A DNA stretch of 64,000 bases, taken from NCBI GenBank assembly GCA_046563655.1, contig CM102285.1, forward strand, positions 4,030,001 to 4,094,000, written 5' to 3'. Below are positions 7,278 to 49,243 of this stretch, piece by piece (position 1 is the first letter of the stretch; every line of letters begins with the position of its first letter). Source of the DNA: Yuukianura sp. NJ FZ-2021 (Eukaryota). A program made the position numbers and the translations under genes. Below the pieces are notes generated by a model. That model was not told the origin of the DNA, searched no databases, and worked only from the letters and a program-made list of their open reading frames with translations.

Positions 7278-7419
7278 GCTGAACAGTAACTACAAAAATG
7301 TAACTAACTGGATGTAGCTTACAGTTTTTTGAAGAGATCTCTTCAGCGAAGTGGCGGAATCCACGAGTACTCAATTGGACGATGCTGGTGACCTCCAAGT
7401 TGACCTCTCGCTCCTTGGT

Positions 7420-7437
7420 CCCGGCTTTCGGCACCAA
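7420..7437 (-). promoter_or_regulatory. Primer binding site, tRNA-Phe-like
   Basis: TGGTGCCGAAAGCCGGGA just inside the 5' LTR; complementary, with about one mismatch, to the recalled 3' end of eukaryotic tRNA-Phe. Confidence 0.8.
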
Positions 7438-7440
7438 AAA

Positions 7441-7776
7441 TGAATAGCTCAAAATGAGATGTAGTGGGAGAGCTTGGTGTGGATCGTATTGAAAGTAGAA
7501 AGCGATGCTCAATAGACGGTGGATAATGAAACTATTAGTATGTTTATTTTGAAGTTAACTGAAGAAGCTCAGAAATGGAACTGAATTGAGAAATGAACAC
7601 TGAAATGAGTGTGGGGTTGACTCTGAATATAATGTAAAAACCCCCAGGAAAGATCTTTCCTTCCCGTCCCTATTGTAGGGTAAAAATACACTAACTGTAA
7701 AACTAGAATTGAAATGTGAATAAGTAAACCTAGGAAATAACCTAAAGAATTGAATTGATCAGTTCACCCACCAACA
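7441..7776 (-). repeat. 5' LTR
   Basis: 336 bp, TG...CA, adjacent to the PBS. Confidence 0.97.
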
Positions 7777-8881
7777 AGTAGAACTCGGATTCATTTTTTC
7801 TCATGCTCGGATTTCAGGTCACCTAGACTTCATTTCAATGGCGTCTCTAGTCCTCTAAATTGACGTTGCTAAAAGTATGGGTAAAAGCACGAGTCAACGA
7901 AGTCGAGTCAATTGTATTATGGTCTAGTTAAAGCACTTCTGGGCACTGTCATGCAAAGGCATATTTAGGCATGGCGCGAGCCATATAAAATATTTACATT
8001 CTAAGCAAAAGTAGAACTCGGATTCATTTTTTCTCATGCTCGGATTTCAGGTCACCTAGACTTCATTTCAATGGCGTCTCTAGTCCTCTAAATTGACGTT
8101 GCTAAAAGTATGGGTAAAAGCACGAGTCAACGAAGTCGAGTCAATTGTATTATGGTCTAGTTAAAGCACATCTGGGCACTGTCATGCAAAGGCATATTTA
8201 GGCATGGCGCGAGCCATATAAAATATTTACATTCTAAGCAAAAGTAGAACTCGGATTCATTTTTTCTCATGCTCGGATTTCAGGTCACCTAGACTTCATT
8301 TCAATGGCGTCTCTAGTCCTCTAAATTGACGTTGCTAAAAGTATGGGTAAAAGCACGAGTCAACGAAGTCGAGTCAATTGTATTATGGTCTAGTTAAAGC
8401 ACTTCTGGGCACTGTCATGCAAAGGCATATTTAGGCATGGCGCGAGCCATATAAAATATTTACATTCTAAGCAAAAGTAGAACTCGGATTCATTTTTTCT
8501 CATGCTCGGATTTCAGGTCACCTAGACTTCATTTCAATGGCGTCTCTAGTCCTCTAAATTGACGTTGCTAAAAGTATGGGTAAAAGCACGAGTCAACGAA
8601 GTCGAGTCAATTGTATTATGGTCTAGTTAAAGCACATCTGGGCACTGTCATGCAAAGGCATATTTAGGCATGGCGCGAGCCATATAAAATATTTGCATTC
8701 TAAGCAAAAGTAGAACTCGGATTCATTTTTTCTCATGCTCGGATTTCAGGTCACCTAGACTTCATTTCAATGGCGTCTGTAGTCCTCTAAATTGACGTTG
8801 CTAAAAGTATGGGAAAAAGCACGAGTCAACGAAGTCGAGTCAATTGTATTATGGTCTAGTTTAAGCACATCTGGGCACTGT
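7777..8881. repeat. 233-bp tandem repeat array, right part (about 4.7 units)
   Basis: Resumes in register after the TSD; unit starts near 7918, 8151, 8384, 8617 and 8850. Confidence 0.98.
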
Positions 8882-10070
8882 GGAATTTCGGTATCATCTC
8901 GGTCAGCATTGCAGATGGCGTCTTGGCCTTATTTTACTTTTTGGTGTTTTTGATGTCTACCACTGTACATAGTGGCATCTTCTTCACCAGAGACGACTAT
9001 GTCAGCGTATTCAACCAAATCCTGATTCTCTTGCGCAAAGTTGATGGTAAATATATTTTAAGTAATCAAATTTTTAAACAAATTATACTTCCTACGTTTA
9101 AATATTGTTGTGTATATGTTGAGCGTATGGGCAAATACCCATATCTACATAATATCTACATATTAGTCCCAAAGTGTGTGAAATTTTAAAAGTTCCTAAA
9201 TAGTCCCAATAAAGTTTATAACTGTTTGTACTGCAGCCATTTATCCCGGTAAACTGAGAACATTGTGGAAGCTAATTTCAGTTCTAGCAGTACCTCTGGG
9301 ACTAGGTGTAATTGTTACCTCTAGCTTCAATTTACCGATGGTCCTGCTATTCCCGCGCAAAATATTTCACTTGTACTATTTTGTTCCGGAGCTCATTAAA
9401 GACAATTCGTGCATAATTTTCTGGTTTGGCATTGGTGAAGCCTATGTTTTCTTTACTTATGTGGCGTTGGAATATTTTTGGTATATTTGAGTCTTGTGTA
9501 CGTGCTATATGAGGCTATATGAGCCTACTATTCTTACCATCAAAATGCTCAAGTATAATATACCCTATTTTATAGCCTATACCAAGTATACTTACCCTGA
9601 ATTTTCTAATGCTTGTAAACATTTGTTGTAGATTTCAAAGTGATTCTTTGGTTCCGTTATACCGACAATTTCAAGTGGTGAACCAACTGTACAGAAATTC
9701 CGTGTCGGCTGTTCCTGTTCCAACTCTCGTCTCACAACTCGGTGGTATTTGGGTGTTAGTTTGTTACATACTCATAACCAAGCATGGTTCACTGGGTATT
9801 CTGGTATACCCAGTGTTGGTAATCGGAATAATAATTATAACGTCTGTGTTACTGCTGTACATTTTAATGGCAACCAATTTGTTTACAGCTAGTGAAAATT
9901 TAATTTCAAAGTGGAAACGGCTTGCTGCAAACCGTGAGCTCAAAGTTTTGAAAAGTTTACAGCCTCTAAAAATCCATGTCGGTCCATTTTATTTCATTCG
10001 CAGATCAACACCTATGACTTACTTTCGACTTCTTTTTGACTGTCTCATTGACGTTTTGTTAGCAACGTAG
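8735..10070 (+). pseudogene. Chemoreceptor-like (GR/OR-superfamily-like multi-TM) pseudogene, 3 exons
   Basis: Hydrophobic exons at about 8860-9046, 9237-9551 and 9632-10070; C-terminus KSLQPLKIHVGPFYFIR...LIDVLL resembles the last helix of GR/OR-type receptors; in-frame stops at 8857-8859 and 9488-9490. Confidence 0.7.
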
Positions 10071-10647: not shown

Positions 10648-13600
10648 TTAAGCGTTTTTGTAGAGTTGGTAAGGAGCGATGATGTTAATGATTTCGTCAA
10701 ACGAAGGTCTTTCCTTGGGCTCTCGAGCCCAACAAGGTAAAACCAACTTCGCAAACCTGAAATTTAGTTCAATTTTTTTAAACCAAGTCATCGATCATGA
10801 AAATATTTTATAAAATTCCTGGTTTACAATGCTGGATTCATCAAAGCAGGACATTGCATGCGCAGTCCAGCCTTCAGAGTATTGACAAAGTCAATTGTCC
10901 AACTGCACCCGGGATATGGAACTTCACCCAGAGAAAATATTTCCCATAGAAGAATTCCGTACGACCAAACATCAGATTCAATTGAAAACGTAAGGTCAGC
11001 CAAGCTCTCGATACTCATCCAACGCCAAGGTAAAGGTTCCTATTACAAGACTGAAGTTAAATCGCTGTTGTAAGGTCATATACCTAATACACATTTAGTT
11101 GCTTAACTTCATTAAGTAATTAGATGACTTACTTCACTTTGTTTCACATACAGCGAATAATTATACAATTGCCTGCAAAATTTTCAGAAGATTTCAATTC
11201 AAATTTGTAATTGGAAAAATTTTGATATTTGAAAACTTGTAAACTTCAAACGTATACCTCGAAAGGCCAAAGTCTGTGATCTTAACGGTTCGATCCTTTG
11301 TCAACAGAACATTTCTTGCAGCCAAGTCGCCGTGAATTACCTTGGAAAGTAATTCAAATATGGCAAAGATTTTGAATTGAGGTTTAATTGATTATATTTT
11401 TTGCTTTTATATTATAATTGAATTGAACCTTCTTGGAAGCCAAATAGGAAAGCCCGTGCGCGATTTGAGAGCTCCAAGTGATCAGTAGTTCTACATTGAG
11501 CCCGCCACTTTGAACATTTGAATAACTAAGAATGCAGTAAGAATGTTGAGGTCAAAGGTTAAATTAGTTAATGTTTTTTTTTACACGTCAAATTACTTTG
11601 AAGCGAAGAACTGAGAACGATGTTGCTGAAGAAATCCAAGTAAGCTTCCCAAGTCACAGAATTCGACAAACGCATAGACAATTCCTTGATGTATAAAAAC
11701 TCAATTTAAAATTTTCGTTTGTGCTTTCTTTTTCAGTTGTATAATATTTTGCCTTGTTTTAAATTCGCCGTCGAGGCTCCAACTAATTGAATCAAGTACG
11801 GACTTTGGCCGAGGTGAATCAAAATTTTGATTTCGGACAGTAAAGCCTTGATGCTTGTCTTGTCCGCGTGTTGTTTTACAGTTTTAACAGCCACAGCAAC
11901 ATCCTTCACAAAACCTTTCATCACGCAACCAAATGCTCCAGAGCCAAGGATACTTTTGTCATCTAAAAAACATGAATTTTCAAAAGAGTTTTAAGATTTC
12001 AGAAAATAATGAGAAACTTTTTCATACCAATTGTGAATTCGCCAACAGGAATTTCATACTCCTTGGGATACGGCAGATTGAACGGCATAACCACTGCGCC
12101 GTCATTTGACTGCGGGATACCGTTTTTAAACTCGTAGATTTCTTGATTTGACAAAATCTAAACAAAAATCAAACCGTGATGACTTACCTTAATTTCATTC
12201 TTGGAAATTCAAACAAAACGCAATTGAGAAAACATGTGGAGAAAGTTGTCTTTTGTACCTGATTGAAGCGCATGCGAAAATAGACGTAAATGGAAGCCGT
12301 TGCGAAGAAGAAAAGAAGCAACAGTCCTACGATTAGCCAATAAAGGTATCCACCGCTGCTGGAAATTTCAACTTCAAATGACTTTTCACCTTGACCATAA
12401 GGATTTTGAAATCGACAAATGTATTCTCCGGCGGAGTCTTCTGTAACTTTTTCCAGTTCAAGTGTACTACTTCCACTTCCTGATGCACTAAAATTCTACA
12501 TTTCCAGCAAAAACGAAATTTTAGTCGTTGGCTTGCTTTCTTTTTAAAACGTCAAATTCAAATTATTTTGAGTTTACCTTCCCAAGTCGTTCCCACCAGA
12601 CAGTTGGCGGTGGTTTTCCTTCGGCGAAGCATCTGATGATTTGATGCTCCGAGTTCAATTGGAACGAGTACGTGAACACGGTAGATAGAGTGGGCGATAT
12701 TTTTGGTGGACTTCCATCTGTAAACACAAAAAGTCAAAGGTCACCAGGTTTAAGAAAAACTTTTGAAGGACATTTTATTACAGATTGTTATTGTACCAGT
12801 TATTGTTAAGTTGATTGAAGAAGTGATCCAATCCGTTGTGTCATGATACGACATTGAACAGGAGACTTGGACAATGTCAGAGGTCAGCGAGATTCTGAGG
12901 CTTGGAAAGGCGTAACTGTTGTATCGCTTGTAAGTTGAATCTTTATGAACTATGTCAGACCAAAAATAGGTTACTAAAAGTTAGGCTGGCGCGGAGTATT
13001 GGGCAGGTTCAAAATCTTACCAAGTTTAATTACTCCCTGTGAACTTTTTGTAAACCAGAGAATTGGGGGTGACAGACAATGCGGAGAATGTCGACAGATG
13101 AATTCGAACTGAGTAGATGTAAACATTGGTTCTGACGGCTTTGGTGACGCTAGTCGTAGTAGAAGGAACGTATCAATTGGAACATACGGTCGCGTTGGAA
13201 GATTACATGCAACTAGATCTTCAAAATTTGAAAATAGTAGTAAGTTAGATTTAAATTTTTTAGTTCCAGCTTTCAAAAAGTATTAAAATGACCTGTGCGC
13301 AGGGCGAACTGAAAAGTTCGTCCAGTGATCCCGGTTCCGTACTGCGTGTATTTGTAGCGATTTCCAGTTGTACAAAATATTACTCCATAAGATGACTCGT
13401 GGTGGATGTCAAACAAGAAAGTTTCACCTTGTGGGCGGACTACCGTTTGAGTATAGTAACTCAAATTTGCAAAATGCTGAAAATTACAAATTTAAACCTT
13501 GAAATAATAATTATTTCAAGTTACAGAGAACAATTATTGTTCTCTGTAGGTAAAAGTTCTAAAATAGTTACCGGAAGTACAAACTCCTTGGAATAGCTAA

Positions 13601-21777: not shown

Positions 21778-24700
21778 CTAAAAATCAATCAAGCTGTGAT
21801 ACAATCCTCTCCGAGCCACCCAAGCCTCATGAGTCAAGAATTCTACAAGGCTTCCCTTTCGCAAAACTCCAATTGCATCTGAATTATTCAGAATGGAAAT
21901 ACGGTTGGAGATGATGAGGGTGGTCCGATCCTTCCGGGCAGCGTCAATTGAAATTTGAATTGCTTTCTAAAAGTTTCAAACAAAATTGGTTAAGTTCCAG
22001 AGAGCACTGTGGCGCCGTTTCAAACCTAACCTCATCTGCCACTGTTTTAACGTCATGTAGCGCTAAATCCTACAAAAATCAGAACAATTAAAACTTCAAA
22101 ATCGAAGTTTTTATAGCCATTGAAATACTTACAAGAAGAAGGACTTTTGGATTACGTATGAGAGCCCTTGCAATACCTGCAACAAAGATAAAAATTCATT
22201 TTTTCTAACAAAAACTTTTTTAAAACCGCTTGCAGTTAGATATAATTAATAACTATTAATGGTAACAGTTTAATGTAGTACTTTTTTACCTATCCTAATT
22301 TTTTCACTCCCTGAAAGTTCAAAGCCTCCTACGCCCAGCACTGTCTCGTATCCCTGAAATTGATGTACAACATGACTGGCTAGGGCATTTTTTTTAGTGT
22401 TTCATTTCTTCAAGCGTATTAGACTCCGTGCGCAAAAGATGAATTAAGCTACCTGAGGAAGTTTAGAGATGAAGTCGTGCGCATTTGCCATAACAGCAGA
22501 ATGCCTTACAGCTTCGAATGACGCATGTCCAGGAGCCCCGAATTCAATGTTTTCCAATATGGTGGCATTTATCATCTCCACGTCCTCACTCACCAATCCT
22601 AAAAATTTATTTAATCACAGTCCTCATTACTGTTCGTAGATGCTTTTATTGCTACAAAGAATTTGTAAAAGCCGAACCGATATTTGCTCTGAGGTATGAC
22701 ACATTTACGTCTCGTACATCCCATCCGTCGATCGTCTGTTACATTTGAAAAATTTAGATTTTAAATATATCATAACTTGTTTATGGTGAAAAAGTGTTTG
22801 GTTATACTCACAATTGCACCGTCATCCACGTCGTAAAGGCGTTTAATTAATTTGCACAACGTGGTTTTGCCTGATCCATCATCTGTAAAGAGACCGAGCG
22901 TCTTTTTTTCTTCGATGGACAAAGACAATCCTTTGAAGAGTGGGTTATGGTCGCCTGGGTACTTAAAGTACACGTTGTCCAGAACTAAGTGTCCAGTAAA
23001 GTTAGGTCTGGCACCACCATTACCCAGTGGATCAATTTTAGATTTAGTTTCTAGGATGCGGAATACAGTAGCCGCTGCTTCCCTGGCTTTGTGTTGACCC
23101 GGAAGCAGAGACAGAATTTGACCGACTGATCCCCCGGCAAAAACAACTGCTAAAAATGCCCTGAAAACAAATTAGATCAGCCCATAAACATACTAACCAT
23201 CAAATACAAACTAACGTTTGAGACTATTTTTCCAACTGAAAGCTTCAAACGCAATAAGTTCAAAATTAATAAGTTCGACGCAAAAACTCCGACGTTGAAC
23301 TTTAAAAAAAAATTAAAACCGCCGAACCTAAGTAAACAACGAAAAGTGGCTTTAAAGTTATTTTTGAACAAATACTTTGGATCGTTTGCTGTTGAACCAA
23401 TTCTGTTTGAACCAATGACTTGCAGCAATCAACGTCAGACTGAAGTCATTTATAAAACACCAAACTTTTACTAAAAGAACTTACTTGTACACACCAGGAA
23501 GTTGAATAAGATTGTCCTCCAGCCATAGTGTGCCAAAGTAGAATGTGACGCAATACACCAGGCACAGGGCGGATTCCGAAAAACCGAAGGTAATCCCATA
23601 AAAGAGAGATCGCCAAGAAGATTTTCTGTTAGAAAGAAAAATAGCCATAAAAAATCTGCTCAAATGAGACAAAGATTCGATTTTATACCTGAATTTTTTC
23701 AGTAATTGGCTTTTGCAATGTTCGAGCATGGTGCCTTCTGCCACTAATGATTGGACCGTTTGAACGTGATCAAGTGCATCTATTGCCACCTACCGGAATA
23801 ATAAAGGCGTTATTTGAAAATTGAACAGTTACCAGGCAGGAAAGCAGGAACTGTTGCGAAACGATGAAATAATATCGCATTAAGGAAGTTACCCGAAGTG
23901 CGGAATCAGGTTCGTGATGCTTCGAAGCTCTTAGTGTCATAGTTTCAAAGAAGGATCCAAAAACTAGAAGCGGCAATGCAAACGTAAGAAGTATTGCGAC
24001 ACGCCATGTTGAAGCGTACGCCAGCCCTAATGAACAAACGACAGTCACAATTGCGACGAAGGTGAAGAGAGTTCTTAGTGTGTAAGCTGATCGCAAAATT
24101 CCGACATCTCGCGATAGTTTGCGTTGAATGGATGCATAGTTGTCTGCGGCTTCAAACCAAGGCAACGGAAGTGACAAAATCTTGCGGATAATCTGGACTC
24201 TCAACGTTTTTCCAATCAGTTCGCTTGAACGACCCAAAAACCTTGTCTAGAAAAAAATAAACGTTTGCTCAAGGTTGGTAGACAAAAAAAAACTTTTTCT
24301 ACTTCAGGTTGTCCTATAAGTTTTAATATTTGCTTAAAAAAACTGCCTTTCTATGGGAATTTTTTACATGTAATATAAATGGGATTGGTGCATTGGTGCA
24401 CCAATTTGTTTGAAGTAAAAATTTTAAAAACCTTGAGGTATTGGACAACCTGTTGTAGCAAATACAATTTATTGTATTTCGGTTGTCAAGGAACCTTGCG
24501 TTTGTTATTCCGATTGGCCAAAAGAATTGGCAAAATGAAAAGAAATTGATTTTGAGTTATCCGTCTTTTTTCGTTTTACCGCCAAAGTTTTCACCTCAAT
24601 TGAAGGCGGGAGTAATTTTCAAAAACTTGAAACTCACTTGAAGAGCAGTAGCCATTGCAGCAAAAATTGCCAGAAGTAGAAAAGCCAGGGCCCAGTGAAT

Positions 24701-27700
24701 GCCACCAGAAGAAACTTGTTGTAACGGACCACTAAACACCTAGGAATCCATAAAGAAACAACAAGCTCCAAAACGTTATTTCAAAAATTCAAAACTGATT
24801 TCAAAAAATCTTTTCTGAAAAAGTATATTTTCCTTACTCTGATTGCTTCGCCATAGATGAGTGCACTGAAAGGTTGGACGGTACCCAACAATCCTGCTGC
24901 TGTAATGCCCAGAACAAGGGAGGGCCATTGCAGCCGCATCATTGTACACAATAGACGTAGCAAATCTCTTTCAGAAAATGTTTCGGGAGTTGAATATGAC
25001 TGATGCATTTTTGAGCCTGCGCTGTCGCCAGCCGTGTAGTCAGCCCTAAACGCATAAAAAGTCATTTTGATACTAGAGATTAACATATGAAGCTATAATG
25101 CTGTGACTATACTTTTCGATGTTCCTCTTCGTTTTCAGCTTCTGTGCAGTATCTTGAACGTATTGGAAATACAAACCTTTGCGCAGCATCAACTCTTCGT
25201 GCATTCCGGATTCCACAATTTGCCCGCCCTAAATGTTTTGGAACTTATTATTAAAACTTTGTTTTAAAAGCACCAATCATTTAAATTCCACACAAACAAA
25301 CATGGTTGTTATTTGTATTTCTTGGTACTTTTAAAAAATGGATGACATCAACTCCTTGAACCGCGACAGGGTTATCCGTTAGTGTGACTGTAGTTCGGCT
25401 TTTTCTGCATTCACGCAGTGCTACAATTGAATGTTGCTGAAATTTACCTCAAACGATCTCCGCAAAGCTTTTTTTTTTATTTCAGAACACATTTACTAAA
25501 ATCTTTACCTTGTAAGATGGTTTCTTCTTCTTGCGAATGAGGTTCGACATTGGCAGTGGGATTGTCTAAAATTAGAACCCTGTCCAAAGGTACACGATTT
25601 TAGCTTAAGCTTTTTGATAACTACGTTTTGGACAGATTTTTTTTAAACTGATAGTTGACCTCACCTTGGTTGACTAGCTAACGCTCTAGCGAGCGCTGAA
25701 ACAAAATTCCAAATAAATTGCTTTGTAAAGCACTTTTTCGGCAAAAATATTTTGTGAATAATTGTAAATAATACCAATTAGTTGTTTTCGACTAGTAGAA
25801 AATTCCATTCCGCGTTCACCGAGCTTTGTATCGTACTTCTACCAGGGAATTAGATTTTGTTAGTATTACATAAAGCTTTACATGAAAAAAATATTACATA
25901 AAATTGAATATGGATTTTACCTCCGGTAGAAGTGAAATAAATTCGTCTGCGTAAGCCTGTCGACCTGCTTCGAGTACACTGACAGCCTTCCCTCCCATTG
26001 CAATATTTTCCCGAATTGTTCCCGGGAAAAGTTTTGGGTGTTGTGCAACCACTCCGAATTGACTTCGAACGTAGTCGGGAGGGAACTCTTGCAGGTCCAT
26101 TCCATCAAGCAAAATCTTACCAATAGAGGGACTGTAGAAACGAAGAAGGAGCATCAGCAACGTAGTTTTTCCTGAACCATTTTCTCCTACAATTCCTACA
26201 TTGGTTCCGGGAGCCACATCCAACGCTACTCCAGTCAAAACCTAATCATACATCTGAGTTACGTTTGAAATATATTTTCAATTTTAAGTTAGGCTATCTC
26301 CGTTCTTATGTTGGCATAGTACGTGTACTTGCTTATGCGTTTTCGTGTGATGTGTAAAATGGACTTCCTTGAACTGTATTTTTCCCTTTAGCGTTGTGTT
26401 TGGAAGGGAACGAATCGGTAGTGAAATTTCCTTTGGAGATTCAATGACTTCGAAAACTGAAAAGGCGGACGTTTTCGCTTCGGTAACAGATGCTCTAAGC
26501 GTCAAGATGTTTCTCACGGCAGTGGCGCTTCCCATTCCAATAAATATTACCTAAATAATAAACAAAGTGATTAGTTTAAATAAAAATGATGAAAAAGTCT
26601 GCTAAAAATTGGCTACCGTGAAAATATAACCGGGCAATATAAGCCCACGAACAAACAAGACAGAGCCGACCCAGAGGATGAGGCCGTATGAAATGTACGT
26701 AACAAAGTTCACACTTCCATTCCCTATCGCCGCAAGGTCAATGCCCTTTTCATTTGACTTAGCCGCTTCTTCAAGTGTCCGCTCATAGTCCTTCATCACT
26801 CGATCTTCTCCACCTAGAAAGCAAAAATACATTGCTGATTAAACGATTTACTGTAAATCCGCTTGCGCAGAAGAGCGGGAAAGTTTACTGCCATACCGAA
26901 AGTAATTACAGCGGATAAAGCCGCCAGCCACTTTTGAAGTGTATGATTTGCCTTTGCAAGACGGTGTTGCTCACCACCTCCAGCAGAAACGCTTAACTTG
27001 CCACTCATATTTGCCATATACAGCAATACGGCTGTAAGTAAAACTGAAAGAAGAGATAGTTCCCAGCTGACGCTGAAACTTACTGCGCAGCCACAAACTA
27101 GAGCTGCTACGTTTTGAATAAGAAGCGACGCCTTCAGTCCAGTTCCAGCCTTTATTGCATCCATATTCCTGAAAATCAAAAAACAAGCATAACTATCAAC
27201 AGGTCAAGTTTCGGTTGAGAAATAGCTTGAAAATTAAATTGAATTACTCTGAAAATTTTAGAGTCAAACTTCCTTCTTTTTGCTTTTCATGCCAAGCAAA
27301 CTGTTGTACGAAGACACTTCGCAGAAACTTAAGCCTTAGACGATAGACAATCAAATCCGAAATGATTTCAAATGACACTGCCTAGAGAATAGCAAAATTG
27401 GCACAAGAGTTGAAGGCCAAGGGATCAATTCCAAATAAAACTGTAACAAATTACCTGAAATGTACTTAGAACAAAAGTGGCACAAGTTAACACAATGTAT
27501 GCTGCAAGGATGTCTTGAGCATGCGCAGGCAAGCGTCGATGACCAGTGAAATCCGTTGATACCAGGGAATTGGTCATCATTCCAAAAACAAGCGCCAAAA
27601 GAGGACCGACGCTTCCGTGACATATAGAGCTAAAAACTCCAAAAGTCAGATTTAATCGTCCACAAATCCCCAGCGAAGAAAACTGCAAATAAAATACAAA

Positions 27701-28098
27701 AGGAAAAAAAAACTCAAAAGAAGCAAAACACGACTGATAAAAAAACACTTTTTCTGAAAAAGTTTAAAATGAAAGTGTAACAAAATGACATTGACCAAAC
27801 TTGAGATGCCACAGCAGCCTCACGACGAGTATTGATTTGTGCTTGGCTTGACCTCCTTTCAAAAAAAAATCGTGACCGTGGATATTCCGAATTGCTGGGA
27901 CAATTTCGGTTACCGATCAGCATTTGAAGCGATTTTTTTCAAATTCACTGCTAACATTTCTATAAATTATAAATTAGAAAATACCAATTTCCAAAAGCTG
28001 ATTTTGTTCCTCTGCGGGAGTTGGATGGTGCCGTAAGAGGTGCGTTTGCCTTTGACATCAGCCTCCTTCAACAATGACCCCGATTGTCCAGCCTTCAT
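21778..28098 (-). CDS. ABCB / P-glycoprotein-like full transporter (TMD-NBD-TMD-NBD) with both NBDs degenerate
   Basis: About 20 exons splice in frame by eye; two TMDs; Walker A GENGSGKTT and TDDGSGKTT; ALARAL and IARALIRNPKVLLL; HEELM..KGLY. Confidence 0.9.
24305..24452. mobile_element. Small Tc1/mariner-like MITE in an ABCB intron
   Basis: TIR CAGGTTGTCC...GGACAACCTG. Confidence 0.55.
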
Positions 28099-29643
28099 AT
28101 TTTGATCTTTTTTTAATAAATTGAACCTTTGACTTTACACCCAGACCCAGTTCCTCATGAGCCTGTGCAAACTTCTACCTCACTCTTATTGTTGCTGACT
28201 TTCATTTTGCAATGTCAATCACGAGGAGGGTATTAAGTGTGGTTGGTAGACTACTGCTAAAACCGGTATGATCAGTTGAAAAACGCAAAGTGGCCGAGTC
28301 ACTGTCCTCAACCAGTCAACATTCAACAACAAAGGGGCACAAAACATGTTTCGCAGCATCAACCATATTGTCATCCGGTTCAAAGCACAACTAACTCTGA
28401 ACCTAATCTGACAACAAAAATAACAATGATAGAAGAACCAACTAACTGCAATTGTCTGTTCATTCGATAGGTTAAAATTAAAACCTACAAACCTTAAAAG
28501 TGTTAATACAGTTGTCGTATTTTAGTGACGCAAGCAACTGCGACGGTAGTACTTGCTGGAACAAATGTAACACATAGGGATACGAATAAGAGATTGTACA
28601 GTTGGAGTAAAATTGACCAATTGACAAATTGATTTAGCTAATGCCGAAAAATTGACTAACTTTTGAACTGAAAAAGAAAGCAAAACTGAAAATTTGGAAA
28701 AGGCGGGAAATTTGTTCCGAATGTGAACGAAACTTTTTGAATTTTGTGAATGAACTAAAAATACATTAGCAAAGGGGTCAGAGTATTAGAGGATTTGCTC
28801 AAGCCGTGCGGCTATGTTATGTTAGTGCGCACTAATAACATAGATGAATACAAAACCAAACGACTTGAGTCGTGCATGGCATGCAACGAAAAAGACGTTA
28901 GGCTATTTTGTAAATAGCAACCCCCCGAAAATTAAGCCGAGATTTTTTTGAAATACATTTGGCTAGAATTTGCAATAGTTATATTCTCGTATAAACACTG
29001 GGTCCATGTTATATAGTCAAAAACAATTTGCTCAGAGAGTGAAAAGGTCAAAAAGTAAAACGGCCATAAAGTGAGATCAAACATACAAAAACCTAGCCAT
29101 TTTGATCAAGTTATTTTGACCTTTTCACCTGCTAATTAAGTATCGAAGTCAACTGTGTGATCGGCTTAGGATGGGATTTTCCCCCATTTGGCCTTGTAAA
29201 TGAGCCAGTTAAAGTAAAATTAGGTTGCTAACTGGTATGGAATCCGCAGACATGCAGAAATTTTCAAATCCATACGTTATGGGATAGTGTTTTACATTTA
29301 GCGTGTTGTGGCTCACTGCCCAGCTAAAACAATCAATATCAATAAAAATATAAAAGCATTCTGTTCATATCGGCAATATTTTGAAATAATTATATACAAA
29401 AATGACTGTATTGATTCGTTTTTTTATTGATGGTGGATAAATTCACTTGGCAAAGAATTAATACTGAATTTTGAGTTGCTTTTCTCGTCGTCTCCTAAAT
29501 TCATAGATGTTTTAAAAGTTGAATTTATGATGATGCAAGCCTGTTTTATTCTTTGCCGTGAAACCTTTGGTTATTTTTTTCAACACTGAATATTATTTGG
29601 TACATATTATCCCAAGTGGCAATTACGTTATACTTTCTTAACA

Positions 29644-31139
29644 ATGGCTTTGGCCTCGTATTTAGAATCCGTAATTCCTACGTACAACGCTGGATTCTAC
29701 TGGCATTGTTACATAGTGGACGTCTGTAAGAAATCTGCTAATACGTATGGAATCGTAGAATCTAAATTGCCGTACAAGAGTTTACTTGTTAGAGGAATCA
29801 CAATCTCAGCTCTATTCGTTAACCTTACGGTAGTAATTTCTCTCTGTTGCATAACGGCAATTGAACAAAAACCACAACGTATTGTTTTGCTCATGGGCGT
29901 TGTATTTCTATTTATACTGCTGATTGTTCTACAAATTTGGCACCTGACAGTTATGGATGAACTCCCTGCCATGGTGACAACTTTCTATAAAAATGTCGGC
30001 GCGGTGGGTAAGACTGAAAAAAAAAAACAAAACAGGCGAAATCCTATTTGCCCTGTAAGCATTGACCTTACTGTAGAATAGAAAATCACAGCAAATTAGG
30101 AAATACTTTATTTTCTATAAATTAGTCTTTCTATAAATTCTATAACACGAATATTTAAAAATGTACTGAAATCTAACCCTTTTAACCTTCTGTTTTTAAC
30201 AGCAAATGAGCCGAAAGAAGAATTTTACGAGTATGAGAAAGGCCTAAGAGTTATCAATTTTATATTCACATTGTATCGCTACGTGATAACTCCGCTAACT
30301 CTAATTTTTATTTATTTCACAAAAAATTTTGTTTCACAACTTCCGTTTCAACTGTACAAAATCATTACTGGAGAGCAGCCAGAGCCAGTTGGACTACGGG
30401 GAATTTTTTGTTACGTTTTTTATCATTTTGGCATTATACACTTTCAACGGTTGTTGCATGCTTTGCATTCTTACAATCTCTTTTCTCGTTCTACTTGTTC
30501 ATCAACTACGCGCTCATGTACACAAATATCACGCGGATTCGAATGCGTCAATTACGGTAAAACAATGAGAATGTTGATAAATCTTAAATCCTTTCTTTAA
30601 AAAAGTGTGACTTGGGCAAAACTATAAAGCTTCCTTGATTTGTCAGTGATGCTGTCAAAGAAGCTACAACTTGGAAGGCAGTACACCAAGTACAGCGGAG
30701 ATATGTTGCAGAACAAGTGTACAGCATCTGCACTAACATTGTATTTTCCGAAGTTGTGGAATTTGCACTCTACGGCTGCGCCATTGTGGTTATTACATGT
30801 ATCTACGCAATGTTTAAACTAAGAAAGGACTCACTCGAGTCTATAGGAGTCTTGATGTTGCTCATAATTGGTTTTACCATTACAAATTCATACAGTCTGA
30901 AAATTGCTATTCAACTAGCGGTGTCATTTTATTTGCACTCTCAGGCCTGTTGCCAAGGCGGTGAAGACAAGCAAACCGTTGAAAACTGGGAATTGAGCAA
31001 TCGGTTGTTTTGGAAATCGAGGAGACCAATTGCCGTTCGTGTTGGAACTCATTTTTCATTGGAAACAAAACAGTATCTCCTCAGGCTCTTCGGAGAAATT
31101 ATTTTACAAAATGCAATTTTTCTGATTCTGACATTTTAA
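29644..31139 (+). pseudogene. Chemoreceptor-like multi-TM gene, paralog 1, frameshifted in exon 2
   Basis: Three exons collinear with 35350-36950; the frame matching the paralog switches near 30437-30444. Confidence 0.7.
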
Positions 31140-32274: not shown

Positions 32275-32827
32275 CTACCAAGGTAGTCCAAACACACACG
32301 TCCATTTGATGGGATTTGTGCCACCAGAGGCGCATCCGACGTTTGTATAATCCGGATATAAAATATTTCCCTTGTGTCCATCTGAACTCATCCAGTCACT
32401 CATTAGACGTGAGCAGTTCCCCTGTCCGTAGGCAATATTTTCCCCATATCTGTGAAACGGATAGGCTACTGCCTTCAATCGAGCACCAAGATCCGGTTCA
32501 TTCACTTCGGTGCACTGATGATTGAAGCATGGAGTATTCACCATGATGTCGTTATGGAATTTCGCCGCATTCGCCAACTAAAAAAAACATTTATAAATGA
32601 GAAAAAAATTTTTTTTTTGGAATTTAACAGAAAATTGAGGTTAAAGTTAAGTGTACTTTTGTATCCCATGTCAATGGTTTTAAGTTTCCGTTCTTTCTCC
32701 GCTCGTCGTTCGTCTCCGCAAGGCAAAGCGTTGCTGGAGCTTGAGCTGCTGCAACAGGTGAAGAGTCAGGAGATGAAAAACTGCTTCCAAAGCAGACAAG
32801 AACTGCCAAAACCAGCAAAGGGCTCAT
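32275..32827 (-). CDS. Secreted CAP/SCP-domain protein of bacterial YkwD-like type, 2 exons
   Basis: Signal peptide; N.ER...LKPL.W..|LANAAKFHNDIM; GENIAYG; WMSSDGHKGNIL; WTCVFG; 79-bp GT-AG intron at 32578-32656. Confidence 0.9.
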
Positions 32828-33546
32828 TTTAAAAAATAAGGTTCTTTTGGATAAATGAATTTTAAAATTCCAAAAGTCACAAATCTCGCTCTTACTCTGT
32901 CTCCTATTTAACGGAGAATTTCCTGACGTGGCTAAAAATTATTTTTGTACTTAATTGCACATCTGGTTTATAATTTTCTCAAAATTTGAATTTTTATTAT
33001 TCAAACCGACCTGTTCGTCTTTGACTAAAAATATATTTGCCACGCTTCCCACAAATTACATAACAATCGATTAAAATATTTCAAAATGCGCAATATATTG
33101 ACGTCAACATTTTTGCAAGCATAGACTGAAAATACGTTGTTTGAAATTGTATTCTTGATTTTTAATCGGTTTACGATTATAGCTTTTCAAATTTCAAGCA
33201 TTCCTAAATATTTTTTTATGATCTTTGATGAAAATCAATTTAATTTCTTTTTAACTTAATAATTTCCTAAGTGGTTAAAAATTGCTAGGTACTAATAGAC
33301 TAAGTTGGCCATGAATAACGATTTGGACCGAAATTTTTCAAAGAAAAAAAAACAGAAAAACAATTAGTAGCATTATTTAACCAAAATCAAGAGATATTAT
33401 AAATAAACTACCAGAGTTGCCATTTCGGTGTTTATGTGGATTGTTTCTGCACAGAAGAGAAGCTTGACATTTTCTTAGGATTCCGACGCCTCTTTAATTT
33501 TAAACTAATTGATAACTTGGATATTAACATTTTAGAATTCTTTGTA

Positions 33547-35100: not shown

Positions 35101-35349
35101 AATGCAAACTAAAAAGGAGTTTCCATTTTTGAAATTAGTTTTTAGAACCCAAGTTAATAATTTCCTGTCCTATAATGGCAAAGTGGGTAATGATAAGAGT
35201 TTGGGCTGTTTAATTATTAAATTGTCTAAAAACTAAAAGGCAAAACAAAATTGAAAAGTAATAAACGTCCTAATTTTTTTCAACCCCATTTGTATATAGT
35301 TTCGGAACCATAGTGAAGCAATATTCCGGAGTTTTTGTCCTGAGCAATC

Positions 35350-36950
35350 ATGGTTTCTTCAAAGATAATTGAATCTGTTGTTCCAACATTCAATGCTGCG
35401 TTCTACTGGCGCAGTGCAACATTCTATTTTGTTAAAGAGGCAGGAGTTTACCAAGTTGTGAAATCCAAACATCCTCACAATCGCTTAATTGTTAAGCTTG
35501 TAACAGCTTCATCTCTCTTTGTCAACTTTATTACGTGTCTTTTTTATTTATTTTCGATTCCCTTCGAAAAAAAGCAAGAGCTGGCTATTCTCCACATTGG
35601 TTGTGCTGCTGTAGAAATACTTGTCATGGGTCTTCAACTCTGGTATTTGGTTTTTATGGATGAATTCGTCGGAGTAGCAGTTGCATTCTATGGCACAATT
35701 GAATCCGTTGGTAAGTTACACTTGGTAAATTGGAAAAAGTATTAGCGGCAAAATGAACATTCTTAAACAATCTCTGTAGTGTAATCCCCGTTAACTAACG
35801 AAAGTCGTAAGTAACAGCACTTCCGATTCTTCCAAAAACGTTCTAAAAAGAGCTTAAGGCGTTAAACGTTGATGTAGCTGATGCTGATACAAATAAAGCA
35901 CGTCCCTATATGCAAAATATTGATTTATTGTGTGTCAGCCGAGTGTTTACATGTTCTGTTCTGATCATAATTAAGGTAACTGTTTTAATTGCTTGCAGAA
36001 GACAAGAACGACGGGTTTTCCTATTTCACACTGGCCCTACAAATAATAAATTTCGTATTCGTTATATTTCGCTATTTCATTATCCCGGTTCTTTTAATGT
36101 TGATCTACTGTACGGACAATTTTGTATCACAAGTCGTATTTGACACATTCTCATTTGTATTTGGACTGGAACCAAAAATCACAGAGACAGATGGGATTAC
36201 TGCATACTTTTTGTATCATGCAGTTATAATAATTTACGTGATTGTAGCCAGCATCACCTTCTTGCAAGCAATATTTCCTTTGTATCTATTCATCAACAGT
36301 GCGTTGGTATACACCCACACAACGTGTACTCGCTTGCACAAATTATGGTGAAACGTATTTAATTATTTACTTATTTATTTATTATGTATTATTATTTATT
36401 TATTTATTAACTTAGTTATTATAAGCTTTTGGTGTATTAATACTCCTCTTAATTTGTTAGTGAAAGTCTTCAGGGAGCTACAACATGGGAAGCAGTGTAC
36501 GATGTTCACCAGAAGTATGTTGTGGAGTACGTGTACAACATCTCTTGTAATCTCATGTTTTCTGGAGTCGTTGAATTTGCATTGTACGGAGGTTCTATTG
36601 TACTTACCAATTGCATCTACGGAGTAATTAAACTTTGCAAGTTACCATTACACTCAATTGGACTCATTCTATTTTTTGTCATCGGAGCTGGCATCGTGTG
36701 CACATACACTATAAAAATTGCTATTCAACTTGCTGTGTCATTATATGTAGCGTCAATAGATTGTTGCCAAATAGGATCACAGAAGCAGACAAAACAGAGC
36801 TGGGAACTGCACAACAGAAAGTTCTGGAAATCAAGGAAGCCCATTGTCATTCGTGTTGGTAGTCACTTTACATTGGAAACAAAGCATTACATTCTAACGC
36901 TTGGGGACGCTATCTTACAAAACGCAATTTCCCTTATTCTAGCATTTTAA
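35350..36950 (+). CDS. Chemoreceptor-like (GR/OR-superfamily-like) multi-TM protein, paralog 2, 3 exons
   Basis: Exons at about 35350-35710, 35998-36347 and 36461-36950; multiple TM helices; C-terminal FWKSRKPIVIRVG...ISLIL. Confidence 0.75.
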
Positions 36951-38942: not shown

Positions 38943-41900
38943 ATGGACAAAGAGTGAGATAGGCACTAGGCAGAATTACGAATAAGAGAAAGTGGAGAAC
39001 TCTCGTCCGTCAGTATGACATATGATGCTGGTATGGGGGCTGGATGATATAAGACGAACAAAGCTGACTAACATTGTTTTTCCTATGGATGGGGCTTTGA
39101 ACTTTCCGAGAAATGCTGAAACAAAAAACTCCAACTATTAATCACAATTAGAGTTTGTTGGTTCGAATTTTTATATCGTTACCCACGATAATCTGAAATT
39201 TGATTTCTGAAATTTTATGGAATTTTTTTTTTATGAAAAAGCGGAATGCGTTAAAAATTTTATTTCAGCATAGCAGTGGGCAATGCTGATTGTCGTCTTT
39301 CTACAAACGTCGTATCACACCCTGACCTTCGAAATATTTCTTTTTTGACACGGTCTCAAAAATTACGCATATTTAGAAAATTTTGAAACTTGAATTTCCC
39401 AATTATTGGCAAATATCAAGTTTTTCGAAAAATATGTTTTTGGCTACTTTTTGCCAGGTTAGGTTAAGGTTTTAGAGGCTTAAACAATGTTATTTAACAG
39501 TGTCTTTAGGGTAGATTTGATTAGCGTTTGAAAAACGCGATTGTTTTTGTTTTTTTAACATATGTCCTTTTGGAAAATTTCCAATTTTCAAAATTTTTTA
39601 GAAATTAGAGATTTTTGCGACCGGATGAAAAAAACATTTTTTTTTCATTGTTAGGAAGTACCTGGAAATACGGACCTGGAAATTTTCCTACTTAAGTTAA
39701 TTTTTTTTTCAATTTACTCTAGATCTTTGCTGGAACAAGACCTCGACACAAGAAACGCCACTCGAGTAGTTATGGCTCAACAAACTGTACAGATCACAAC
39801 GGCAGGACAGCCTACAATTATCGCGCCAGCCAACCAGTTGTTTCGGGCGCAAAATGTTATACAAGCAGCAAACTTGGTTACACAAAATGGGAACACCATA
39901 ATCACTGCGGGTAGGAAGCTCCATTTCACAATCTTGCCCATACACGTTGAGATTATAGCTTCAAACTCCTCAATGCAAAACTTAATTTTGAAGATGACGT
40001 ACAAAATGTCTGATATACGTCCTAAATGCACGCTTTCTTTTGGGAAATTCGGTAAAAAGTACCGAAGTTACTGACTTTTTTGCTGTTGCCAAGTATACGA
40101 TCAAACTTTGGTTTTTAGCAGTGTTGGTGGACGCTTAAACGGCCAGTGGCTTAGTTGCCACTTCCAGTGGATATCCACTGGAAGAAACGCACCCCAAATG
40201 GACGAAACTAAAAGTGGATGGAAGAAATCACAAATTTTGCGCGAAATTCAAATCAATTCAAATTTAAATTTACGAAATGTAATCGGAAAGCTTTACTTCC
40301 GACATTATAATTAATATATTATTTAAAACGTATTTAAAAACGATATATATAGTTTTTGGACTGTGTTTTCATGTTGTTTAGTTTTTTGAAGTGAATTTAA
40401 TTCAAATTCAGAGGGCAAGGCTCCGCCCCTTTGGATTCATCCATTTCGTCCATTTCTTCCACTGGGTATCCAGCCGTGGATGAAATGTCGAAAAAGTGGA
40501 TATCCACCAACACTGGTTTTTAGGGTATTGTAGTTTCTCCATTTTTTTTCGTCTGAATTTTAAAAATGCCTTTCCGTAACACAATACTACAGGGGCAATT
40601 TGGTTTGCTGGTTTCTTTCACAAGCATGTTGCATTGCATTATGTTAACAACACTTACACTCCGTCTTTTTCTACAACAGGTCAAAATGTTGTCCGCACCG
40701 CGATGCCACAAATGCTCCAGTTCCCAATTCAGCAAACCATTCCCGTCCAAATACCGATGCAGACGGCGAATGGACAAACAATTATACAAACCGTTCATAT
40801 ACCCGTGCAAACATTGGCCACCGCCATACCTAACTCCGGAGTAATACAAGGCGGTCAATTTCAAGTGATACAGCCACAGCTAACACAGGTAGCTATTAAC
40901 CTAAAAGTTATGTCGCAATTTGTTTTTAAATTGAATTCCAAAACCATTCTTACTTTATAGATTCCTCAACAGCAGTTAGCGCAGGTTATTACGCCTTCGG
41001 GGCAAATTCAGCTAGCACAAATTGCCTCTCCAGCAACAACAAGTCAGGCGGGAACAGTTACGAATTGGACACAGAATCCAAACGGCACAATAACTATTCA
41101 GGTAAACCCAAACTGGGTTGTACTTATTTATGTATATAAATAGTAATTTGTATTATTTCCTCCATAATTTGACCGAAATTAATGACATTTATGTTAAATG
41201 GTTATGCTTGCTTAGACTTCAGTTGGTAACGATCAGTCAAATGCAGTCACCACAGCGGCACAACCCCAAGTATCTTCGACAACGCAAGCTACTAACGGCG
41301 TTACATCTACAACGCCTACAGTTGTCACAGCTCAAACACAGCATCAACAACAACCTCAACAACTTGCACAACAGATTACAATTCAGGGTGCTGGTGGGCA
41401 ACAATTTACTGTCATTCCTCAAAATTTGAATCAACAATTTCAGGTAACTACCTGAAAACGTAGGAAAAAATGCTTTCGTTTCGTGTGCTGTATAATTTAA
41501 ACAAGTCCCAAATTAAACCATTTAAACAATCCCGGCCGTTACAAAGCAACAACTTTTTTTTTCGGTATTTTGTGCACATGAAAGGAACAACTATAATGAG
41601 ATGACAATTGACAATAAAAAAGTAACTCGACGTTTTTTTAATACTGTTTAGACCATGTCTATTCCCGGTCTCGGAAATGTACAACTGATACCAGCAGGAG
41701 TACTTCAAGGGCAACAAACCCTTACTCTACAGCAACAAGCTCCAAATAGTACGCAGCAGGCAATTTTACAAGCAATTCAGGCCACCACGTCTCCTTTAAT
41801 GGCTGGATTAGGTAAATGACAGAGTTGAAAAACAGATTGTAAATCGTTCCTGTTGCAAAAATCCAAAACTGCACTCTGTGAATGTTTTAGGTGCACAACA

Positions 41901-43186
41901 AATACAGCAAGATCCATTGGATCCGTCTAAATGGCAAGTCATTAACCCGTCAAATCTGGTTGTAACAACGTCACTTCCGAATGGCAGTACTGTGGCAACT
42001 ATTAAAACTGAACTGGAAAAGCCAAAGACACGTCTCAGAAGAGTCGCGTGTACTTGCCCCAACTGTACAGACATCGATGCGAGGTATTGTGTACTTGTAT
42101 ACAATACTCTAATTCTAATCCAACGTTTACGTGTACGTGTACGTTTTACGTGTAGATGAATGACATTTTACCTGTAATGTTTTAGGAACAATGGTGAAAA
42201 GAAGAAGCAACACATTTGCCATATAGTTGGATGCGGAAAAATTTATGGGAAAACGTCACATCTAAGAGCGCATTTGCGCTGGCACAACGGCGAAAAGTAA
42301 GTTGTTAGTAATGCTCAAATGATAATTTGAATTTGATCTAAGTACGAGTGTTAGCACTACTAAAGATTACTACACACAAAACGGTTGGTCATTTGTTTCT
42401 CAGGCCTTTCGTATGTCAATGGCTATTCTGTGGTAAACGTTTCACCCGTTCTGACGAGCTTCAGAGGCACCGTCGAACTCGTGAGTGCCTGAATGCTTTC
42501 CGTTTATTTGAAGTCCAATGCATCTTGTACCATAAGAGTCATTCATGATAGAATTATATTTTAGATACCGGTGAAAAGCGGTTCCAGTGTCATGAGTGCT
42601 TGAAGAAATTTATGAGGTCCGATCACCTATCGAAACATATCAAGACTCACACTAAGCACAGGATCGTTGGTGTTGACGTAGTGCCCGATTTAGCCGACGC
42701 AGACAGCAAACCAGGGACTATAAAATCTGTAAGTTCTACTCTTTTTGAATTAATTTTATACATGCAATTTTACAGTCACTTACTCCAGATCTTTGAAGTC
42801 AAATTAAACAAAACAAAAAGTGCACGAGAGGCATTTAGATTTTTTAGTTGCCAAATTAAAGCTAAACGTGCCAGAAGAAAGTTAGTTTGTAATTCGTGTG
42901 TGGGAATACAAAAATGAAACTTTTTTTTGCATTCTTACTCCTTATTCTAAAATGGGAATTCAAATAGAACAATGTATAAAATCGACTAAATTGTCAAATC
43001 AGAATCCTAATTGTACTTTTGAAATGTCTTCAGGAAATTTTGGGATCAGATTCAATGGAAGACGAGGAAGGACTAGACCAAGATCAGTTGGAAGATGACG
43101 AAGACGGTGAGAGTGAAATGATGATCACAATCAACACTGATGGAGATCAACCGGAACTGATTATAACGGAAGGGAATGCAGACTAA
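38943..43186 (+). CDS. Sp-family (Sp1-4-like) transcription factor
   Basis: Q-rich exons, buttonhead box [10 protein letters not shown], three C2H2 fingers ([52 protein letters not shown]), acidic tail; start exon MDKE (38943-38953) inferred from splice phase. Confidence 0.92.
40119..40515. mobile_element. hAT-type MITE in an Sp intron
   Basis: TIR CAGTGTTGGTGGA...TCCACCAACACTG; 8-bp TSD GTTTTTAG. Confidence 0.9.
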
Positions 43187-44308: not shown

Positions 44309-44625
44309 CTTCTGGTGCACTTCCTGACTGATTGGTAAGACCCTCAGAAAACTACGACCACACTTTTCGCATTAGCACACGCTAATAAACAGCACATCTG
44401 ACGATTATTTGACGAAAACAGGACCCTTCGCCCAGAAAACTTAGGTTTTCTGGGTTTTCCCAGGATTTCAGAAACATCTTCCAGAAAACCTAAGTTTTCT
44501 GGGCGAAGGGTCCTGTTTTCGTCAAATAATCGTCAGATGTGCTGTTTATTAGCGTGTGCTAATGCGAAAAGTGTGGTCGTAGTTTTCTGAGGGTCTTACC
44601 AATCAGTCAGGAAGTGCACCAGAAG
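44309..44625. repeat. Long inverted repeat: 145-bp arms, 27-bp spacer
   Basis: 44309-44453 is the reverse complement of 44481-44625, with no mismatch seen by eye. Confidence 0.93.

Positions 44626-46787: not shown

Positions 46788-49243
<2,456 letters not shown>

Follow-up and report, generated by a model that had tools for sequence, protein, structure and literature searches.

To our knowledge, ABC exporters are thought to require at least one hydrolysing site. According to passages of PMC7756269, a degenerate site whose Walker A is intact holds ATP stably but does not turn it over, and serves as a hinge. As described in the same passages, the degenerate site of human full-length ABC proteins is always NBS1, and the natural exceptions reviewed there have only one degraded site. 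These passages also report that ABCB1 with both Walker B glutamates changed to Gln, Asp or Ala has residual ATPase activity, and that such double mutants bind and retain ATP but perform no transport. Excerpts of PMC7544095 add that ABCB1 is locked when the catalytic Glu is the only residue lost, and that further changes to that site make ATP binding weaker and release the lock. A search of main texts in the open full-text literature found no naturally occurring full-length ABC exporter in which the two sites are both degenerate.

The ABCB-type gene analysed here occupies positions 21778..28098 on the minus strand of a 64-kb window (the whole stretch of DNA that was analysed), with a start ATG at 28098..28096 and a stop codon at 21780..21778. 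The model is based on GT-AG introns, tblastn matches and colinear alignment. Its 24 exons are spliced into a 3657-nt CDS of 1218 codons plus stop, which encodes 1218 aa with 0 internal stops, versus 69 and 55 stops in the remaining two frames of the spliced CDS. All exons are on the minus strand. Exons 1-6 lie at 28098-27985, 27682-27455, 27381-27248, 27168-26897, 26813-26617 and 26550-26329; exons 7-12 at 26241-25921, 25838-25775, 25695-25665, 25579-25509, 25420-25329 and 25228-25113; exons 13-18 at 25045-24838, 24739-24638, 24246-23893, 23789-23689, 23625-23485 and 23160-22812; and exons 19-24 at 22735-22678, 22598-22453, 22353-22290, 22176-22133, 22069-22031 and 21966-21778. No single exon spans a whole NBD. 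The original prediction had counted about 20 exons, a number that has to be raised to 24, and had described them as splicing without stops, which our manual model bears out with GT-AG borders throughout. All 23 introns run from GT to AG, and 46 of 46 splice dinucleotides are canonical. The GC content is 0.45 in the CDS versus 0.31 in the introns. By splice-site reading, two of the 23 donors are weak, with T at +3, and both lie within the NBD2-coding part: GTTCGG of intron 19 (22672..22677, minus strand) and GTTAGG of intron 23 (22025..22030, minus strand). If intron 19 is left unspliced, the frame ends 9 codons on, within NBD2. When the sequence at introns 19 and 23 was inspected visually for other junctions, each candidate led to a stop or broke the homologous alignment, and all were rejected. 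An Rfam scan of the window returned 0 matches.

The predicted protein has the TMD-NBD-TMD-NBD architecture of the ABCB/P-glycoprotein type in a single chain and is colinear with the family in the alignment. TMD1 (exons 2-5, approximately residues 39-315; 26617..27682, minus strand) and TMD2 (exons 13-17; 23485..25045, minus strand) were assigned by PF00664, alignment and hydropathy peaks, with ABC_membrane (PF00664) scores of 37.9 bits for exon 4 and 57.8 bits for exon 15 (cut-off 28). ABC_tran (PF00005) scores 71.1 bits on exon 7 of NBD1 (cut-off 25). The single-exon piece of NBD2 scores 22.4 bits, under the cut-off of 25, because this exon carries only the first 33 profile positions; NBD2 was identified from a phmmer alignment that scores 57 bits against ABCB1 residues 944-1056, together with tblastn matches in exons 18-22 and 24. 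Of the 1133 core columns of the family, 1087 are occupied, and the largest deletion spans 6 aa. The alignment gives an N-terminal stretch of ~40 residues before TM1 and a linker of ~45 aa. Identity to known homologs is at most 33% across the full length. The top solved-structure matches are ABCB1, ABCB4, ABCB11, C. elegans PGP-1 and plant ABCB1/19, and the structure matches include PDB entry 6C0V, which we take to be the double-Glu ABCB1 mutant in an ATP-bound, outward-facing state. Judged by its alignment to the family, the gene is structurally complete and evolves fast within the animal ABCB1/P-glycoprotein clade.

The motifs were compared in alignments with 13 homologs and with 170 full-length homologs; all motif coordinates below are on the minus strand. 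In NBD1, the Walker A GENGSGKT (26164..26187) is canonical by comparison with the homologs and retains Lys414, and Q456 of the Q-loop is retained as well. The other motifs are altered. The A-loop carries His382 (26350..26352) in place of the family Tyr (Y in 165/170 homologs, F in 5/170), and the signature reads FSTSR (25788..25802) instead of the LSGGQ found in 130/170. In Walker B, Asp533-Asn534 (25561..25566) shows the catalytic Glu changed to Asn, where 164/170 homologs have E. The aligned D-loop is ANVE versus SALD (25543..25554), and the H-loop His is lost to Asp567 (25374..25376), a position occupied by H in 148 homologs, R in 13, Q in 5, S in 1 and a gap in 3.

NBD2 retains Y990 of the A-loop and Lys1021 of Walker A. 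Its Walker A is TDDGSGKT (22863..22886), with the first Gly, present in 170/170 homologs, replaced by Thr. The Q-loop Gln, present in 166/170, is replaced by Glu1063 (22585..22587), and the signature aligned to the homologs is LSGSE versus LSGGQ (22303..22317). The catalytic Glu of Walker B is changed to Leu in Asp1144-Leu1145 (22064..22069), where the homologs have E in 157/170 and gaps in 13. These two residues are the opening two codons of exon 23. The H-loop His, found in 157/170 homologs, is lost to Asn1177 (21904..21906), and the D-loop is altered, as in NBD1.

Neither composite site combines Glu, His and LSGGQ. The degeneracy of both ATPase sites had been proposed in the original prediction, and every motif quoted there was located in the spliced protein and compared with the two homolog sets; the two Walker A lysines it had listed as kept are indeed Lys414 and Lys1021. 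The retained binding residues comprise the Walker A Gly/Lys/Thr positions and the Walker B Asp of both NBDs, with the exception of the first NBD2 Gly, together with the NBD1 Q-loop. Both Walker B glutamates are substituted in 0/170 full-length homologs; two homologs first scored as lacking both proved to have gaps in truncated gene models. Substitution of the Walker B Glu in NBD1 only occurs in 3/170 homologs (D, Q and M), versus 0/170 for NBD2.

The protein resembles ABCB1/P-glycoprotein full transporters in its TMD-NBD-TMD-NBD order, its size (1218 aa) and its PF00664 and PF00005 domains. However, both catalytic glutamates, both H-loop histidines, the signatures and the D-loops are replaced here, and the terminal branch is more than 2 times the median. 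With the asymmetric exporters (ABCB11, TAP1/2, ABCC proteins with CFTR and SUR, TM287/288 and TmrAB) it shares the loss of the Walker B Glu and H-loop His, an altered facing signature and a kept Walker A. Those exporters have one consensus site, whereas none is present here, so the contrast with single-site-degenerate ABC proteins drawn in the original prediction holds. In this protein the erosion is greater at NBS2, which combines the Walker A, Walker B, Q-loop and H-loop of NBD2 with the FSTSR signature of NBD1, whereas the degenerate site of human full-length proteins is NBS1 according to the passages of PMC7756269. ABCC proteins (CFTR/SUR) carry a TMD0/lasso, and CFTR an R domain; the protein here is without these, and its best matches are ABCB. 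It is like the engineered double Walker B Glu ABCB1 in that both catalytic bases are absent and the Walker A lysines are kept, but in the natural protein the changes extend to both signatures, the D-loops and H-loops, and one of the Q-loops. Plant proteins of the ABCB20/ABCB6 type also have non-canonical motifs in both halves, with an NBD1 signature LTEEQ/LTEKQ in 13/170 homologs, an NBD2 signature LTPGQ in 13/170 and an NBD1 H-loop Arg in 13/170. Unlike the protein here, they retain the Walker B Glu in each NBD and the His of NBD2, and the trees do not place them as its closest clade.

In the IQ-TREE phylogeny the protein falls within the animal P-glycoprotein clade (SH-aLRT 100), whereas in FastTree it branches off basally among the eukaryotic proteins, which leaves its exact sister group uncertain. 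A specific sister is absent among the ten top matches, which include a barnacle, nematodes, a glaucophyte, Fonticula, an ichthyosporean and a contamination-flagged sturgeon record. A word-based search with a TMD2 exon found 0 relatives among 344 candidates at E <= 0.001. A search with an NBD1 exon gave 1109 matches, and the 120 of them that were listed reach 54% identity at most. Exhaustive HMMER comparison of exon 18 with 1.84 billion representatives gave 7855 matches with a best identity of 43% among the 150 listed, and the matches at 43% are two short fragments with a canonical Walker A. A metagenome scan yielded 9 loci at 32-42% identity. Since an exon of the neighbouring CD36 gene likewise has 0 relatives among 110 candidates, the lineage looks poorly sampled, and the missing ortholog says little.

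We propose that the gene, a fast-evolving P-glycoprotein paralog of an animal, has been retained and encodes a protein that binds ATP but does not hydrolyse it, a reading to which we give a probability of about one half. On its motif pattern, the protein probably binds ATP without pumping. ATP would be bound at each NBD, most convincingly at NBD1; binding at NBD2 is uncertain because the invariant first Walker A Gly is replaced by Thr. Neither site is predicted to hydrolyse ATP fast enough to drive a transport cycle. One possible mechanism is that the protein has two “hinge-type” degenerate sites and zero motor sites. With altered signatures and D-loops, the ATP sandwich would be less stable, so that ATP could bind reversibly without locking, and the inward/outward equilibrium of the TMDs would shift with ATP/ADP occupancy. 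The ABCB11-like quadruple mutant described in excerpts of PMC7544095 suggests, by analogy, that the extra motif changes loosen ATP occlusion and do not lock it. The protein would then likely serve as a gated pathway that senses ATP, either a facilitator or a channel, or as a regulatory/receptor subunit, and not as a primary pump, and the “receptor, regulator or channel” role suggested in the original prediction may be read in these terms. More tentatively, this may be an animal exporter-fold ABC protein in which both sites bind ATP and neither hydrolyses it, with the TMD pathway gated by ATP as a reversibly bound ligand. It would then be nature's equivalent of the engineered double Walker B mutants. 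If true, it would be a second, independent “broken pump” besides CFTR and SUR, within subfamily B, and NBS2, usually canonical, would be the more eroded site. If the gene is under selection, it would provide a natural test of what ATP binding alone does in an exporter fold, which bears on the power-stroke debate of ATP binding versus hydrolysis, and a case for how a pump becomes a sensor, channel or regulator. It would also call for caution with ABC gene inventories, which tally such members as drug pumps, probably wrongly.

The motif losses could instead reflect a dying or recently dead P-glycoprotein duplicate, in which constraint relaxed first in the NBDs and the frame is still open shortly before the first disabling mutation; we consider this rather unlikely. 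Such decay would fit the terminal branch, which is the longest in all trees (1.73 versus a median of 0.86 in FastTree; 1.61 versus 0.71 in IQ-TREE). The surplus of ~0.8 substitutions per site on this branch is about equal in TMDs (0.82) and NBDs (0.80), as uniform relaxation also gives. Decay would also fit the retention of just 77% of conserved non-motif columns, versus a median of 96% and a 5th percentile of 87% among homologs, as well as the two weak GTT donors, the truncation of NBD2 if the intron 19 donor is unused, the absence of an AATAAA-type hexamer from the 600 nt downstream of the stop, and the identity of at most 54% to relatives for all exons searched, among the matches listed. 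However, no stops, frameshifts or lost splice sites were found across the 24 exons, in which the two weak donors still carry canonical dinucleotides. In a drift simulation on this CDS (1000 replicates per level, indels not counted), stop-free replicates numbered 40/1000 at 5% amino acid divergence, 3/1000 at 10% and 0/1000 at both 16% and 27%, and most of the divergence therefore arose under frame-preserving selection. This divergence includes multi-nucleotide motif changes such as Glu to Asn, Glu to Leu and Gly to Thr. The losses also cluster at catalytic positions, with binding positions spared. At columns conserved in at least 90% of homologs, 14/31 ATP-site residues are retained versus 66/86 others (Fisher p = 0.003); when the ATP-site residues are divided further, 11/12 positions that bind the nucleotide (G/G/G/K/[ST] of Walker A, Asp of Walker B) are retained versus 6/26 for catalysis and dimer positions (p = 1e-4), a partition chosen post hoc. 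Only a very recent death would fit these results, and nothing indicates one. The open frame, the splice dinucleotides, the selective residue retention and the drift simulation lend only indirect support to a gene kept by selection. The NBDs have a terminal branch of 1.26, double the next longest (0.64), and the TMDs one of 1.50, near the next longest (1.23), which also speaks for the proposed reading. If it is a dying duplicate after all, it would be an ordinary outcome of the birth-and-death turnover of P-glycoprotein genes.

A retained protein could still be an ATP-driven pump with non-canonical catalysis, for instance with Asp567 or Glu540 taking over the part of the Walker B Glu, or with a slow residual hydrolysis that suffices. 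Its NBD1 has a canonical Walker A, Walker B Asp and Q-loop and has new acidic residues at the H-loop and D-loop positions, and the residual ATPase of double Walker B Glu mutants of ABCB1 (passages of PMC7756269) points the same way. We nevertheless regard a pump as unlikely: the catalytic Glu, H-loop His and facing signature are changed in both sites and the Q-loop also in NBD2, this combination is seen in 0/170 homologs, and the substitute base is our own suggestion. Mutation of either catalytic Glu blocks transport by ABCB1, according to the parts of PMC7756269 and PMC7544095 that treat these mutants. The non-hydrolysing reading could also be mistaken through a gene-model artefact or misassembly, with transcripts using other exons and a canonical true protein. 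Exons 1, 9, 10 and 23, the shortest, were missed by tblastn because they are too short, and are supported by frame and splice logic alone. This explanation is nonetheless very improbable. The degenerate signatures, H-loops and Q-loop lie within exons recovered by tblastn (8, 11, 20, 21 and 24), and the introns beside the motif exons are 63-113 nt long and thus have no space for alternative exons. Translated in all six frames, the 64-kb window contains no LSGGQ-type signature, no hhhDE Walker B and no SALD. With three homologs (P0124, P0008 and P0123) as tblastn queries, the matches are colinear and confined to the modelled exons, with just two matches elsewhere in the window (E 0.5-0.7). Other exons that restore DE, LSGGQ and His, which the original prediction had named as the outcome that would overturn it, are ruled out within the window by this six-frame motif search and tblastn. 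The GC content is 0.45 in the CDS versus 0.31 in the introns.

The window is animal DNA with a GC content of 33-45%. Its ABCB-type gene was spliced by reading the sequence along the minus strand from 28098 to 21778, and a script check afterwards recovered 24 exons with GT..AG at 23 of 23 introns, 20 of them 63-113 nt and three 302-391 nt long. The coding sequence of 3657 nt encodes 1218 residues with no internal stop (the remaining two frames contain 69 and 55), and its GC content is 0.45 versus 0.31 in the introns, so that the original prediction of an intact gene is borne out. In a tblastn search of the window, three independent homologs (nematode, fly and barnacle P-glycoproteins) matched the modelled exons only, in colinear order; no match outside them was credible, the two found having E values of 0.5-0.7. 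Exons 1, 9, 10 and 23 (13-38 codons), not matched by tblastn, are placed by frame and splice logic. The two signature exons, exon 8 (25838-25775, minus strand) in the first nucleotide-binding domain (NBD1) and exon 21 (22353-22290, minus strand) in NBD2, are both 64 nt long with equal phase, which indicates that the two halves still share an intron pair dating from the ancient internal duplication.

The ATP-site motifs were compared with 170 full-length homologs, namely the proteins of 1050-1700 aa among 270 retrieved with the NBD1 exon and exon 18, and all motif substitutions described previously stood. NBD1 has the Walker A GENGSGKT and retains Gln456 in the Q-loop; its A-loop residue is His382 (Tyr in 165 homologs, Phe in 5), its signature FSTSR, its Walker B Asp533-Asn534, its D-loop ANVE and its H-loop residue Asp567. 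NBD2 has Tyr990 in the A-loop, the Walker A TDDGSGKT, whose first position is Gly in 170/170 homologs, Glu1063 in the Q-loop, the signature LSGSE, Asp1144-Leu1145 in Walker B, an altered D-loop and Asn1177 in the H-loop. None of the 170 homologs has both Walker B glutamates substituted, two flagged cases being gaps in truncated models; the glutamate is substituted in NBD1 only in three (D, Q, M) and in NBD2 in none.

Excerpts of PMC7756269 describe degenerate sites with a kept Walker A as binding ATP for minutes and acting as a hinge during turnover at the consensus site. CFTR and SUR, both named there, are precedents for pump-to-channel and pump-to-regulator transitions. In ABCB1, according to excerpts of PMC7544095, loss of one catalytic Glu led to occluded ATP and an arrested cycle, while three more changes in the same site weakened ATP binding and released the arrest. 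The two sites of the ABCB protein both resemble hinge sites, with signature and D-loop residues lost in both; NBS2, the composite site combining the Walker A/B, Q- and H-loops of NBD2 with FSTSR of NBD1, is the more eroded. We propose that ATP would bind reversibly without turnover, most securely at NBD1, and that nucleotide occupancy would bias the conformation of the transmembrane domains (TMDs). Judged from its residues, the protein may be an ATP-sensing gate, a facilitator or a regulatory subunit of a putative partner, and not a pump. Precedents exist for exporter TMDs operating without ATP hydrolysis.

It is highly improbable that the degenerate sites are an artefact of the gene model. 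In a six-frame scan of the 64 kb window, no LSGGQ-type signature, hhhDE Walker B or SALD is encoded, and NBD1 supplies the sole canonical Walker A. The short introns flanking the motif exons could not accommodate alternatives, and none of the alternative junctions of exons 22 and 23, which the NBD2 Walker B spans, yields Asp-Glu when read by eye. Thus, alternative exons cannot restore a canonical protein, and the escape named in the original prediction is ruled out at the locus. A pump with non-canonical or residual catalysis is unlikely; in its favour, double Walker B mutants are reported in excerpts of PMC7756269 to keep residual ATPase activity.

Support for retention of the gene by selection is indirect. 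Of the family columns conserved at 90% or more, the ABCB protein keeps 66/86 outside the ATP sites versus 14/31 inside (p = 0.003), and within the ATP-site set, in a partition chosen post hoc, it keeps 11/12 nucleotide- or Mg-binding positions versus 6/26 for catalysis or dimerization (p = 1e-4). When the coding sequence was drifted in simulation by random substitutions only, the frame stayed open in 40/1000 cases when 5% of the amino acids had diverged, in 3/1000 when 10% had, and in 0/1000 when 16% or 27% had; the terminal branch of the gene carries ~0.8 extra substitutions per site. Together, the loss pattern, the simulation and the extra divergence suggest that the ATP sites eroded with the reading frame still preserved. 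Several of the motif changes require two nucleotide changes each. A recently dead duplicate, a possible but doubtful reading, would fit the branch length, which exceeds all others in every tree (1.73 versus a median of 0.86 in FastTree; 1.61 versus 0.71 in IQ-TREE), and the 77% of conserved non-motif columns kept, under the homologs' 5th percentile (87%). The extra branch length is 0.82 for the TMDs and 0.80 for the NBDs, as uniform relaxation would give; however, at 1.26 the NBD branch is double the next longest in that partition (0.64), whereas the TMD branch, at 1.50, comes close to its next longest (1.23). T at +3 in 2 of 23 donors also favours recent death: they belong to introns 19 and 23, each within the NBD2 part, and failure of the intron 19 donor would truncate NBD2. 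So does the lack of a poly(A) hexamer within 600 nt 3' of the stop.

Pfam assigns ABC_membrane to exons 4 and 15 and ABC_tran to exon 7, and the solved structures closest to the NBD1 and TM12/NBD2 exons are ABCB1, ABCB4, ABCB11, C. elegans PGP-1 and plant ABCB1/19. The protein aligns colinearly with the family (1087/1133 core alignment columns filled; longest deletion 6 residues), and the alignment reveals neither an ABCC-type N-terminal extension nor an R domain. IQ-TREE (LG+G4, 23 rows) places it within the animal P-glycoprotein clade (SH-aLRT 100) beside two nematode P-glycoproteins (support 99), and FastTree (38 rows) in a basal position among the eukaryotic proteins. The clade placement is credible; the sister group does not, because the branch is so long. 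Full-length identity to homologs reaches 33%. Among the matches listed, identity is at most 54% for the NBD1 exon and at most 43% for exon 18 in an exhaustive HMMER search; the TMD2 exon found no relative at E <= 0.001 among 344 candidates, a metagenome scan gave nine related loci (32-42% identity), and no ortholog was found with these queries or among these loci. Ten top matches looked up came from scattered taxa, and a neighbouring CD36 exon likewise had no relative among 110 candidates. Sampling of the source lineage thus seems poor, and nothing can be concluded from the lack of orthologs.

In the open-access full texts searched, excerpts of PMC7756269 among them, no natural exporter of full length was found in which the two sites are both degenerate; the present case is one sequence from one genome. 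In plant ABCB20-type proteins (the retrieved homolog P0002 and its relatives), neither NBD has a canonical signature: LTEEQ or LTEKQ stands in NBD1 and LTPGQ in NBD2 (13/170 each). Their NBD1 H-loop carries Arg (13/170), but unlike the ABCB protein they retain both catalytic glutamates.

The window also holds a Pao/BEL retroelement and C2H2 zinc-finger, CAP, GH1, CD36 and Ig-domain genes. The retroelement (119-9026) has an uninterrupted Gag-Pol frame of 1711 aa (2154-7289, minus strand) with Peptidase_A17, DUF1759, DUF5641 and integrase zinc finger domains, and looks like a young insertion. On both sides lie arrays of a 233-nt tandem repeat (~119-1461 and 7776-9026), mutually 99-100% identical, and an identical 300-nt pair (1382-1681 and 7441-7740), in an order unlike simple LTRs. 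Adjoining the ABCB gene, tandem paralogous multi-pass membrane-protein genes (29590-31139 and 35344-36950, possibly also 8860-10070, plus strand; last exons 58% identical, E 4e-69) match no Pfam family at threshold and may be a lineage-specific receptor-like family. A CD36-family gene has exon(s) at 53211-54420 (plus strand, Pfam 2.7e-39), for which no protein at E <= 0.001 emerged among 110 word-sharing candidates from a large protein collection. Minus-strand exon(s) represent a glycosyl hydrolase family 1 gene (47917-49318), a CAP/SCP-domain gene (32275-32938) and an Ig-domain gene (12184-12495). A glutamine-rich gene with C2H2 fingers occupies 39655-42917 (plus strand), and C2H2 zinc-finger genes lie at 43452-46090, 55275-56323 and 61787-63214 (minus strand; Pfam run on 62396-63214 only). 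The first exons of these minus-strand genes share a similar short C-terminal motif at their end.
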